Part shown: one piece after another, positions 51,918 to 60,845 of the stretch | Numbering within the stretch: position 1 is the stretch's first letter | Layout of the letters: each line of letters opens with the position of its first letter | Assembly: GCA_034667725.1 (NCBI GenBank) | Contig: JAXDQS010000004.1 | Coordinates: 30,973 to 94,972, forward strand | Reading direction: 5' to 3' | Length of the DNA stretch: 64,000 nt | From: Thermoplasmata archaeon | GTDB taxonomy: Archaea; Thermoplasmatota; E2; JACPAO01; JAHFTW01 | Program-made: the position numbers and the translations under genes | Notes under the pieces: generated by a model | Databases searched by the model: none | The model's input: the letters and a program-made list of their open reading frames with translations, nothing else | Told to the model about the DNA's origin: nothing

Positions 51918-54900
51918 TCATGCCCCCTGGGCCGGGACCGCGACCGGGTCGAGGCCGGGGTGGCTGACGGCGCAGACCCGGCCGTCGACCATGAAGAAGC
52001 GCACGCCGAAGCGCAGCTCGGGGCCCTGCACGACCGCGCCGCCGTCGCCGTCCGGCTGCACCTGGTGGGCGCGCAGGTCGGCGGCGAGGCCGACGCCCGC
52101 CCGCTTCAGGGCGGCCTCCTTGGCGGCCCACAGGCAGGTGGTCTCGACCTGGGCGTTGTCGGACTCCAGCAGCAGCCGCAGCTCAGGGACCGAGAACGAC
52201 TCCTCCAGGAACGAGCGCGGCCGGTCCTCAACGGCCTCCAGGTCGACGCCGACCGGGTCGGCGCTGACGGCGGCGAGGGCAAGGTCGCCTTGGTGGCTGA
52301 TGGAGACGGTCCACGGCGAGTCGGCGCCCGCCAGCACCAGGCGGGGCTTGCCGCCAACACGGGTGTCCGGGTCCTCGCCCAGCACCTCGACGTCGGCGTC
52401 CGCAAGCTCCGGCCGAAGGTGGCGGACGGCCTCTTTGGCCGCCAGCCGGCCGGCGCGCCACTCGTCGGCGCGCTTGTCGACCTTGAGCTTGGCGTGGGCG
52501 GCGCGCTCGCGGGGGCTGAAGCGCGCGTCCACGGGCTTGTGCTCGACGCGCACGGCCGCGAACGACACGCCAGGCAGGTCGGGCAGCGGGATGGCGTCGC
52601 TCATGGCGACCTGGGCCTTCGGGGCCTCGTGGTGCCCGTTCGCTTGCGGCGGCAGCACGGCCGAGCCGGTCTCCACCATGCTGTAGCCGACGAGCCGGAC
52701 CAGCAGGCGGCCGTCGCCGGCCACGGCCTCCGCGTCGAAGGTGCGGTTGCCGGCGGCGTCGCGCCCGGTGGGGCGGCCGCGCAGCCGGACCTCGCTCGGG
52801 GTGCTGCCGGTGTGGTGGCATTCGAGCTTCGCGATGCCGGCGGGCAGGCTCATCGCCTTGTCGGCGAACAGCGTCTGCAGGCCGCACACCTGGAACAGCG
52901 CCTCGGTGATCATGGGGTAGCTGGTGAAGGTCGCGCCGCCCGCGCCGAAGTGGCGCTCGGTCGGGTCGCGGTAGACGCCGGCGGCCTCGGGGCTCCACGG
53001 GCCGGCGGCCTCCAAGACCTGGAAGCTCGGGCCGTGGAAGAACGGCGGGTAGATGCCGCTGCGCTGGACGCTGCGGTCGCACGCCGGCGTCGGGGCCTTG
53101 GGCATCATCGCGAGCACGCCGTAGCGGATGGTCGCCTCGAAGTGGAGGCGGGGCTCGCCGTGCGGCTTGCCGTCGGGGCCCATGAACTGGGTGGTGAGCC
53201 GGCACGCGATGGTGGTGGCGGGCGCGCCGGGCCGCGAGGTGACGGTGGCCTCCAGCTTGGCGCGCACGGGCGGCGCCTTGAGCTGCTTGAGCGGGCTTGC
53301 GAACTTGACGTTCTCCGCGCCGAGGAACGAGTGGTCCTTCGGCGCCAGCAGGCTCGCGGCCTCCGCGAACGCCTCGATGCCGAAGACGCCGGGCAGGTAG
53401 GGCACGCCGTCCACCTTGTGGTCGCGCAGGCCGGGGTCGCGGGCTTGGTCGACGACGACGGTGGCGACCAGGCTGCGGTCGGGCACGAGGGACTCGACGG
53501 ACTCCAAGAGGCGGAACCGGTCGGCCTTGTCGGCGATGAGCTGGTTCGCGATGGCGGACGCGAGGTCCCAGCCCTTCGCCACCACTTGGCCGTCCGCGTC
53601 GATGGCGCCGACCTCGCCGGCCACCACGGACTCGCGGACGCCGGGCTGGGCAAGCTCGGCGAGGAAATGCCGCACGCCTTCCGTGGTCGGGATCGGGGTC
53701 ACGCCCGAGGCGTGCATGATCTGGAGGATGCTGCCCTTCGTGGCCATGCCGACCTCGCCCCACGGGCCCCACGCGATGGTGGTGCCGACGAGGCACTTGC
53801 GGCGCGCGGCCTCCTGCTTGACGGCCTTGGCGAGGTACTCGTTGGCGGCGGAGTAGTCGGTCTGCCCGATGTTGCCGAAGCGGCCGGCCACCGAGCCGAA
53901 CGCGACCAGGAACTCCAGGCGGTCGTCGCGGGTCGCGGCCATCAGCGCGTCCCAGCCCTTGGCCTTGACGTTGAACACCGACTCGAACTGGGCGCGGTCC
54001 TTCGACGCCAAGTCCTTGGAGACCTCTACGCCGGCGGCATGGATGACGCCGTCGACGCGGCCCCACTGCGAGCGCGCCCACTCCACGGCGTCCTTGACGA
54101 CGGCGGGGTCGGTGGCGTCCACCGGCGCGTACAGCACCGAGGCCCCCAGCTCCTGCAGGCGCTCCAAATTGCGGAACACGTCGGCGGCCTTGCGGCGCGG
54201 CTCCATCGCCTTCTGGATGGTGACGGGCGTGACCTTGTCGCCGCGCGCCTTCATCTCGGCCATGACCTGCGCCTCCATCGCTTTCCAGCCGGCCTCGTCC
54301 AGCTTGGCCCAGCCGCCGGCGGCGTCGGGCATCTGGGTGCGGCCGAGCAGCAGCAGCTTCGGGTTCTGGGGAGCAAGTGCTGCCAGCAATTCGACCGTGA
54401 TGCCTTGGGCGCCGCCCGACACCACGATGCCCTTCTGCTCGACGTCCAGCTCTGCGGCTGGCAGTTCTTGCGGCGCGACCTCGATGGCGTAGCGCGAGCC
54501 GTCGCGGCCGTACGCGACCTCGGTGCGGCGGCCGCCCTTCGTAAGCTCCGCGAGGACCTTGTCGTGGGCCATGCCGGCCTCGGGGTGCAGGTCGATGGCC
54601 TTGACGACGGCGTCCGGCAATTCCTTCTTCAGGGCCTTGACGAGGCCGTCGAGCGCCGCCATCGAGGCGTCGCGGACATGCTGCAAGCCGTGGGCGCCGT
54701 CCTGCCGCGTGACGCAGGCGACGAAGGTGCCCGCGCCGAGCGCGGCCCGGTGCAGCTTGGCGGCGTCGAACAGCGGGCCGACGCGCTCGAGGGGCGTCAG
54801 GCCGTGGCGCATCGCGACCGCGACGAGGCCGACGGGGACCTCGCCGTCCTTGAGCTGGTGCGTGGGCGCCCAGCCGGCGGCCTTGAGGGCGTCGCGCAGG

Positions 54901-60845: not shown

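Follow-up and report, generated by a model that had tools for sequence, protein, structure and literature searches.

The window analysed here, 64,000 nucleotides of a Thermoplasmata archaeon genome (assembly GCA_034667725.1, contig JAXDQS010000004.1, positions 30,973 to 94,972), carries on its minus strand a gene for a 2,975-residue megasynthase that ends in its own 4'-phosphopantetheinyl transferase (PPTase). Our comparisons identify this enzyme as the archaeal, PPTase-fused form of a known family that lacks an assigned product, most probably the Type R secondary lipid synthases, and not as an unprecedented architecture. The first-pass annotation of the sequence had stated that the protein matches no characterised architecture; this claim fails, since Type R was described in 2011 (PMC3098273), the domain order is common to the 120 best relatives, and the family reaches at least 599 species genomes. 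We consider it probable that the synthase is an iterative type I, PfaA-like enzyme of the Type R family that builds a largely saturated, fatty-acid-like chain with the help of an enoyl reductase (ER) acting in trans.

Domain organisation and carrier threonines

The gene is a single intact open reading frame (ORF), with its ATG at 60845 and its stop codon at 51918-51920. Pfam resolves the 2,975-residue product into a ketosynthase (KS1), an acyltransferase (AT), a second ketosynthase (KS2), three acyl carrier protein (ACP) domains, a ketoreductase (KR), a dehydratase (DH), and the PPTase, in the order KS1-AT-KS2-3xACP-KR-DH-PPTase:

51918..60845, minus strand: megasynthase gene (ORF and translation; Pfam and NCBIfam domains)
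59376..60815, minus strand: KS1, aa 11-490 (PF00109/PF02801/PF16197; Cys231/His365/His408)
58104..59039, minus strand: acyltransferase, aa 603-914 (PF00698; TIGR00128 fabD, 222 bits; Ser702 in GHSLGE; AAFHS motif)
56166..57728, minus strand: KS2, aa about 1040-1560 (second ketoacyl-synt stretch; Cys1273/His1421/His1461)
55086..56003, minus strand: three tandem carriers, aa 1615-1682, 1737-1804, and 1853-1920 (PF00550 x3)
53757..54425, minus strand: KR catalytic subdomain, aa 2141-2363 (PF08659, PF00106; Tyr2331 in YSAANEY)
52659..53510, minus strand: PKS-type DH (PKS, polyketide synthase), aa 2446-2729 (PF21089, PKS_DH_N; PF14765, PS-DH; His2476 in HKVDGVPYLP)
51921..52490, minus strand: Sfp-type PPTase domain, aa 2786-2975 (PF01648, ACPS, and PF17837, 4PPT_N, at 2786-2940)

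These domain calls and residue positions agree with the earlier description of one uninterrupted gene with two Cys-His-His ketosynthases, an acyltransferase bearing GHSLGE, three carriers, a KR, a DH, and a PPTase. The same description had noted that the polypeptide lacks an ER, a thioesterase (TE), and a FabA-type DH, and searches of all 2975 aa with Pfam and NCBIfam likewise returned none of these. For the whole protein, the top-ranked NCBIfam family was PfaA (TIGR02813), with a score of 945.5 bits that does not reach the family cut-off of 1010.1. Across 86 aligned relatives, the catalytic residues of the KS, AT, and KR domains are invariant, as are those of the PPTase wherever this domain is fused. 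The DH residue His2476 is also invariant, with the Gly of its motif varying in about one seventh of the sequences and the Pro in about one fourteenth. Judged from the AAFHS motif and published AT motifs, the acyltransferase is predicted to be of the malonyl type.

The PPTase domain displays Asp2868 and Glu2870 within VGVDLE and the WxxKExxxK signature as WAAKEAALK, and its best match in the PDB is Sfp (1qr0/4mrt, E 1e-6). Its closest database relatives (E <= 1e-29) are the C-terminal parts of long synthases, or fragments; beyond E 1e-29, the relatives are mostly standalone PPTases of ~230 aa, together with a few more fused ones. A database protein of the same size and identical sequence (P0001) is encoded on the 263,923-bp JGI contig Ga0467041_0000025 (locus L001; synthase loci are given L numbers throughout). 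No other public contig encoding the identical protein was found. This one stops at window position 62795, inside the neighbouring carboxyltransferase (CT) gene; since the window reaches 1.2 kb past this end (62796-64000), it derives from a longer or different assembly of that organism. Because the window has a GC content of ~71%, with a third-codon-position GC content (GC3) near 0.96, long ORFs occur on both strands. A plus-strand ORF of 3810 aa (51726-63158), antisense to the synthase and the CT gene, was rejected as such a high-GC shadow, its translation being low-complexity nonsense.

KS1 and KS2 share only 24% identity. A phmmer search of KS2 (aa 1040-1570) against the PDB gave FabF (4ls6, E 4.6e-27) as the best match, with the Cys and both His residues aligned, and Pfam added weak Thiolase_N/ACP_syn_III matches near aa 1263-1306. 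The domain also contains an insertion of ~100 aa that is missing from some relatives. Since Cys1273, His1421, and His1461 are intact, and the triad is invariant in the 86 family members, a role of KS2 as a strict, Cys-less chain-length factor was ruled out; by its residues, KS2 is a potentially active ketosynthase.

All three carriers read MEADLGIDTVKQAELFG, with the motif DLGIDTVKQAE, and thereby place a threonine (Thr1645, Thr1767, and Thr1883; codons 55911-55913, 55545-55547, and 55197-55199) where the phosphopantetheine-bearing serine is located. Apart from this exchange of the Ser that marks the start of helix II, fold and motif conform to PF00550 carriers. The first-pass annotation had correctly counted three tandem carriers and had missed this substitution. 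When the carriers are aligned with PigH, CurA, and bacterial ACPs, the Thr falls into the column of the phosphopantetheine Ser. In an AlphaFold model of a carrier (pLDDT 84), Thr41 opens helix II, and comparison of the model with ACP structures gave TM scores of 0.75-0.82, consistent with an ACP fold. Thr was found in 518 of 521 carriers from 120 family proteins (the remaining three have Ser) and, among 50 locus-derived proteins, in all 182 carriers (0 Ser), amounting to 700 of 703 attachment positions across both sets, and the full recognition motif DLG(I/V)DTVKQ(A/V)E is conserved in the family.

To our knowledge, the carrier proteins described so far all use Ser, and the S36T variant of the E. 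coli ACP is not modified by AcpS. Literature searches on Thr phosphopantetheinylation and on the motif strings found no paper. An Sfp-type PPTase that is tied to its synthase would fit a dedicated enzyme for an unusual acceptor. We tentatively propose, as something possible and still short of probable, that the family carries its prosthetic group on Thr instead of Ser, installed by a dedicated, co-inherited PPTase that is fused in archaea, and that the fused archaeal enzyme and the acetyl-CoA carboxylase dedicated to it would together amount to a type I fatty-acid-like synthase that depends on ACPs and is portable. If true, the system would be orthogonal to host AcpS/Sfp enzymes and would give lineages that are believed to have no ACP machinery, including relatives of the eukaryotic ancestor, a way to make fatty acyl chains.

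Family distribution, phylogeny and host

The 120 best relatives span ~2,750-3,800 residues and share the order KS1-AT-KS2-ACPn-KR-DH, with about 60 of them ending in a PPTase; the exceptions are one partial protein of 1,697 aa and a few proteins with extra N-terminal or displaced ACP matches. The closest relatives align over their full length at 53-72% identity and, where named, belong to Thermoplasmatota. At 41-50% identity, we found archaeal entries assigned to 'Euryarchaeota', Thermoplasmata, 'Methanobacteriota', and Kariarchaeaceae, together with bacterial ones from Caldilineaceae, Anaerolineae, Kouleothrix, Oscillochloris, Leptofilum, Elusimicrobiota, and Spirochaetota. The first-pass annotation had proposed searching public genomes for the same domain order. 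A KS2-motif scan of one genome per species returned at least 599 matching stretches, 598 of them confirmed, mostly from bacteria. The best 80 loci returned include Thermoplasmatota and Heimdallarchaeota among the archaea, and Chloroflexota, Acidobacteriota, Actinomycetota, Myxococcota, Elusimicrobiota, Spirochaetia, Binatia, and others among the bacteria; a search with a Bryobacterales KS2 query added many more Actinomycetota.

The state of the PPTase follows the domain of life. It is fused in 6 of 6 taxon-labelled archaeal complete genes, the window copy included, and separate or not within reach in 43 of 43 taxon-labelled bacterial complete genes. With the PPTase fused in the labelled archaea and encoded by the next gene in bacterial relatives, the archaeal enzyme is most simply read as the result of joining the synthase to the family's own pfaE-like downstream PPTase gene, and as unrelated to the enediyne polyketide synthase PKSE. 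The first-pass annotation had linked the terminal PPTase to the PKSE layout; we abandon this link, as the domain is best read as the fused neighbour and the best family match is PfaA.

A neighbor-joining tree was built from 86 sequences and 2,132 well-aligned columns, with 100 bootstraps, midpoint rooting, and no outgroup. The window's synthase falls into a clade of 21 PPTase-fused sequences (99% bootstrap), whose sister group (92%) is a clade made up of 44 bacterial sequences (100%). A second PPTase-fused clade, containing Heimdallarchaeota, Kariarchaeaceae, and others, received 78% support, and a clade of Elusimicrobia and Spirochaetes 69%. The archaeal copies are thus split over the tree, which makes repeated transfer between the domains, or a return transfer, likely. 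Most likely, the cassette is bacterial in origin and entered archaea by an old transfer that is now fully ameliorated.

The window contig is archaeal and its host assignment is right. Among the archaeal markers listed in the first-pass annotation, S6e (30652-31098), the ZPR1 jelly-roll protein (25425-26075), an RPA-like OB-fold protein, and Tpt1 were confirmed, and a split transketolase accompanies them. The nearest named S6e relatives are Thermoplasmatota (82-90% identity); S6e relatives lie on contigs of 306,774 and 350,839 bp, and contigs of the same sizes carry the synthase relatives P0021 and P0025. The GC3 of the synthase (0.96) is like that of its neighbours, its codon usage deviates from the rest of the window by a root-mean-square value of 0.033 (0.035 +/- 0.007 for random 9-kb gene sets), and its tetranucleotide correlation with the rest of the window is 0.98. 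Because codon usage and tetranucleotide profile match the rest of the window, there is no sign of a chimeric insert, and the earlier statement that GC content and codon bias show no break holds, including for the tetranucleotide comparison that had been suggested as a check. The earlier picture of a self-priming (PPTase-fused), iterative-type synthase with tandem carriers and adjacent acetyl-CoA carboxylase genes, set in a genuine archaeal chromosome, likewise stands.

Archaea are held to lack ACP, ACP synthase, and the type I and II fatty acid synthases (bioRxiv 10.1101/2024.07.05.601840). A polyunsaturated fatty acid (PUFA)-like PKS in Heimdallarchaeota had already been mentioned in a survey of biosynthetic gene clusters (PMC7472256), and our literature searches on archaeal PfaA-like or hglE-KS clusters, and on follow-up of Type R, returned nothing specific apart from this survey.

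Gene neighbourhood, likely product and rival readings

In the window, the synthase lies within an operon-like block, CT - synthase::PPTase - BioY - biotin carboxylase (BC) - biotin carboxyl carrier protein (BCCP), whose genes overlap or abut from the synthase to BCCP:

61506..63191, minus strand: carboxyltransferase subunit of the PccB/MmdA/AccD5 type, 561 aa (PF01039, E 5e-195; TIGR01117, 773 bits, below cut-off)
61013-61498, plus strand: SnoaL_2/NTF2-like gene, divergent, between CT and the synthase
51038..51916, minus strand: BioY biotin transporter (PF02632; begins 1 nt past the synthase stop)
49458..51041, minus strand: biotin carboxylase, 527 aa (PF00289/PF02786/PF02785; NF006406, 636 bits; 4-nt overlap with BioY)
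48961..49458, minus strand: biotin carboxyl carrier protein, 165 aa (PF00364; 1-nt overlap with BC)

The CT gene is also found upstream of the synthase in L002, L003, and L005-L009, and BioY occupies the same place in L002, L003, L005, and L006. The two Thermoplasmatota loci L002 and L003, from Hainich groundwater and another ENA sample, read Suf operon - cupredoxin - CT - synthase::PPTase - BioY - BC - BCCP. The Suf operon and cupredoxin upstream are listed for these two loci only, and the window shares the cupredoxin. The core CT - synthase::PPTase - BioY - BC - BCCP recurs in metagenome-assembled genomes from sand filters, and L006 keeps the synthase block as far as its short contig reaches. 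The SnoaL-like gene is absent from the corresponding position in L002 and L003 and had no match in the other loci scanned. Bacterial loci are arranged as [EtfB-EtfA]-ACAD(~550 aa)-synthase-PPTase-CT-BC-BCCP, where Etf denotes the electron transfer flavoprotein (ETF) subunits and ACAD an acyl-CoA dehydrogenase, and an Asgard-type contig (L085) as BC-BCCP-CT-synthase::PPTase. This 1.13-Mb contig with its fused synthase also encodes an Arf-family small GTPase (22675-23334), which fits an Asgard (Heimdall-type) host. The window's CT is 54-58% and its BC 37-50% identical to the copies in Chloroflexota cassettes.

Around this block, two AhpC/peroxiredoxin genes and a carboxymuconolactone-decarboxylase-family (CMD) gene directly follow BCCP (window 47443-47925, minus strand, and neighbours; L001 13832-15970), and the cupredoxin gene lies upstream of CT at 63217-63651. 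Elsewhere, the window carries a phosphate-uptake block (1415-7563) with PHO4, PhoU_div, PhoU, two Pst permeases, and PBP; a PhoU-MazE/AbrB fusion regulator adjoining an ArsR-type gene (23890-25338); and two tandem genes for DUF998 membrane proteins (41225-43277) beside an MFS transporter (43258-44436).

Candidates for enoyl reduction emerged from the relatives. In bacterial loci (L004, L013-L084), an ACAD of ~550 aa (ACAD551) is encoded directly upstream of the synthase, often after EtfB-EtfA. It is 54-83% identical across phyla, and its best family match is the clostridial acryloyl-CoA reductase AcrC, with the linked ETF alpha subunit best matching AcrA. A Thermoplasmatota locus (L087) carries ACAD-EtfB-EtfA(Fer4) upstream of its fused synthase, and in a Thermoplasmata locus (L086), a gene for a FabI-like enoyl-ACP reductase (9175-9996) ends 4 nt before the synthase. 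The L086 synthase itself has an extra N-terminal ACP. That two unrelated types of enoyl-thioester reductase are tied to the synthase in different clades suggests that the family needs a trans-acting ER. Because ER candidates adjoin the synthase in relatives, we infer that a largely saturated, fatty-acid-like chain is favoured over a PKSE-like polyene. The first-pass annotation had expected a polyene-like or lipid-like chain; its polyene half is now uncertain, although possible for the window's clade, and the ER candidates of the relatives argue for at least partly saturated chains. An ACAD encoded in the window (35138-36253) was rejected as a reductase partner: it shares only 28% identity with ACAD551, of which it is no ortholog, and 32% with the ACADs near L002/L003. 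The 380-aa ACAD and the enoyl-CoA hydratase encoded downstream in L002/L003 were likewise discarded as parts of the system, as they are not in the window.

In the mechanism that we propose, BioY would import biotin, and BC, BCCP, and CT would carboxylate acetyl-CoA to malonyl-CoA. The PPTase domain would convert the three tandem carriers into their holo form at the conserved Thr, and the AT would load malonyl units. The two active ketosynthases would share the condensations, either by chain length or as priming versus elongation, and the KR and DH would take each beta-keto group to the trans-2-enoyl stage. An ER, in the window's genome encoded outside the window, would then act in trans.

Several points weigh against this proposal. 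The 64-kb window contains no ER candidate, with no FabI or ETF match, and because of this a non-reduced polyene or hydroxy-acyl product is possible for the window's clade; in the relatives, the ACAD with its ETF could equally work oxidatively, as a desaturase. Neither a thioesterase nor a lipid acyltransferase turned up near the synthase, which leaves chain release unexplained, and no Type R product is reported in the searchable literature. As we know of no precedent for Thr phosphopantetheinylation, the formation of holo-carriers is itself hypothetical. The match to Type R is one to the published description, with the Roseiflexus, Solibacter, Koribacter, and Elusimicrobium minutum genes outside the alignments. 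Without an outgroup in the tree, it is the much wider distribution in bacteria that points to the direction of transfer.

One alternative is that the Thr carriers are not phosphopantetheinylated, being structural or regulatory repeats, or that the enzyme is inactive in archaea and the PPTase serves another substrate. The Ser of known carriers, the unmodified S36T variant, and a literature without a report of Thr modification are in keeping with it. We nevertheless regard it as very unlikely, given that Thr is nearly invariant in both carrier sets (518 T versus 3 S; 182 T versus 0 S), stands in the model exactly at the helix II N-terminus of a normal ACP fold, and is embedded in a wholly conserved recognition motif; furthermore, archaea and bacteria alike keep the PPTase linked to the synthase, as a fused domain or as a neighbouring gene, and the carrier-dependent catalytic domains are all clearly conserved. 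A different product would result if, as in the enediyne PKSE, repeated cycles of KS, KR, and DH without an ER yielded a conjugated all-trans polyene or else a poly-hydroxy/enoyl chain, with release by a trans-acting hydrolase. No ER in the polypeptide and no candidate in the window agree with this, and the C-terminal PPTase after the DH does resemble the PKSE order, yet this PPTase corresponds to the family's adjacent gene, the whole protein is similar to PfaA (945 bits), PKSE does not figure in the top 25 of the NCBIfam matches shown, and the enzyme possesses a second KS and three carriers in tandem. The SnoaL-like gene between CT and the synthase, of polyketide-cyclase fold, could point the same way, but it is missing from the sister loci L002 and L003 and unmatched in the other scanned loci, and scans of 41 window ORFs, like the gene calls of the JGI locus, revealed neither a hotdog TE nor UNBL/UNBU/UNBV. 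With two unrelated ER types adjoining the synthase in other clades, we judge the polyene outcome unlikely.

An assembly or binning artefact, in which a bacterial PKS fragment was chimerically joined to an archaeal contig, would account for the mostly bacterial membership of the family and for the fact that archaea generally have neither ACP nor ACP synthase (bioRxiv 10.1101/2024.07.05.601840). However, the synthase cannot be told apart from the remainder of the window by codon usage, GC3, or tetranucleotide profile, assemblies made independently from other samples repeat the gene order (L002, L003, and L005; L006 as far as its contig reaches), the same contigs carry archaeal genes (S6e, ZPR1, ribosomal L1/P0, a TFIIB-type ribbon, and, in the Asgard case, the Arf GTPase), and the archaeal copies form their own well-supported clades. 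We therefore consider an artefact close to refuted.

A Thermoplasmatota clade passes on, in a single block, a carrier-dependent synthase that is complete, together with the enzyme that activates it and the genes for its malonyl-CoA supply, and the set occurs also in Heimdallarchaeota; this is relevant to the 'lipid divide' and to the question of how fatty acyl chains could be acquired by archaeal lineages. For enzymology, synthases of ~3,000 residues in hundreds of species, with a Thr attachment site, two intact ketosynthases, and a bacterial ACAD/ETF partner, provide a well-defined target.

Comparison with known systems

Clostridial acryloyl-CoA reductase and butyryl-CoA dehydrogenase-ETF complexes reduce enoyl thioesters, and the ACAD551 and EtfAB of the relatives may be likened to the AcrC-type complexes by their best family matches; the window holds no ortholog. 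The alpha subunit of the fungal type I FAS (fatty acid synthase) also has its own C-terminal PPTase domain, with a weak sequence match in the PDB (6u5w, E 0.05). Its overall architecture is unrelated, its PPTase is AcpS-like and trimeric, and it has a single Ser ACP, making this an analogy and not a shared membership.

Enediyne PKSE enzymes have the layout KS-AT-single ACP-KR-DH-PPTase and are accompanied by a hotdog TE and UNBL/UNBU/UNBV. The window's synthase resembles them in being iterative type I, self-priming, without a cis ER, and ending in DH-PPTase. It differs in its three ACPs and in the KS between AT and ACPs, and its neighbours are CT, the SnoaL-like gene, BioY, BC, BCCP, and peroxiredoxins instead of the enediyne cassette; the top 25 NCBIfam matches shown do not include PKSE.

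PfaA (TIGR02813) is closer, sharing the KS, malonyl acyltransferase (MAT), tandem ACPs, KR, and PKS-type DH, and it is the best whole-protein family match, albeit below its cut-off. The window's synthase differs from it by the extra KS2 between AT and ACPs and by the fused PPTase, and its carriers have Thr where those of PfaA read LGIDSIK with Ser. Of the PfaA partners, Pfam scans of 41 window ORFs revealed no pfaB (AT), pfaC (KS-chain-length factor (CLF)-FabA-type DH x2), or pfaD (ER), and none is present among the genes called in L001-L003 and L085-L087; a FabA-type DH was likewise lacking from these ORFs and from the gene calls of L001.

The closest correspondence is with the Type R secondary lipid synthases (Shulse & Allen 2011, PLoS One 6:e20146, PMC3098273). 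There, Type R is described as one pfaA homolog of the order KS-MAT-CLF-ACP(3-6)-KR with a downstream PPTase gene, exemplified by Koribacter, Solibacter, Elusimicrobium, and Roseiflexus, and its product was unknown in 2011; in Koribacter, an acetyl-CoA carboxylase gene lies between the synthase and the PPTase. The PPTases of Types M-T are characterised there by the motifs P1a, x(G/D)xP, and P1b', hShxH, with P0 not required. Set against this description, the window's KS1-AT-KS2-ACPx3-KR(-DH) reproduces the order KS-MAT-second KS-ACP(3-6)-KR, and its linked PPTase, a C-terminal fusion here and the next gene in bacterial relatives, shows GGKP (P1a) and VSISH (P1b') within aa 2770-2975. Acetyl-CoA carboxylase genes lie nearby in both, and the same bacterial phyla appear among the relatives, in that Chloroflexia, Bryobacterales, Terriglobales, and Elusimicrobia contain proteins of this architecture.

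The differences from Type R as described there are the fused PPTase, the archaeal host, and BioY inside the block. The second KS of the window's enzyme retains Cys-His-His, so that 'CLF' is a misnomer for it. Thr carriers and an ACAD/ETF partner are not mentioned in the accessible part of PMC3098273, in which no search aimed at 'threonine' was made. As far as checked, the window and its relatives add several new features to this family: the PPTase fusion that marks the archaeal members, the private carboxylase genes with BioY as a conserved block, partners of the ACAD/ETF or FabI type, a second KS with its triad intact, and the near-universal carrier Thr.

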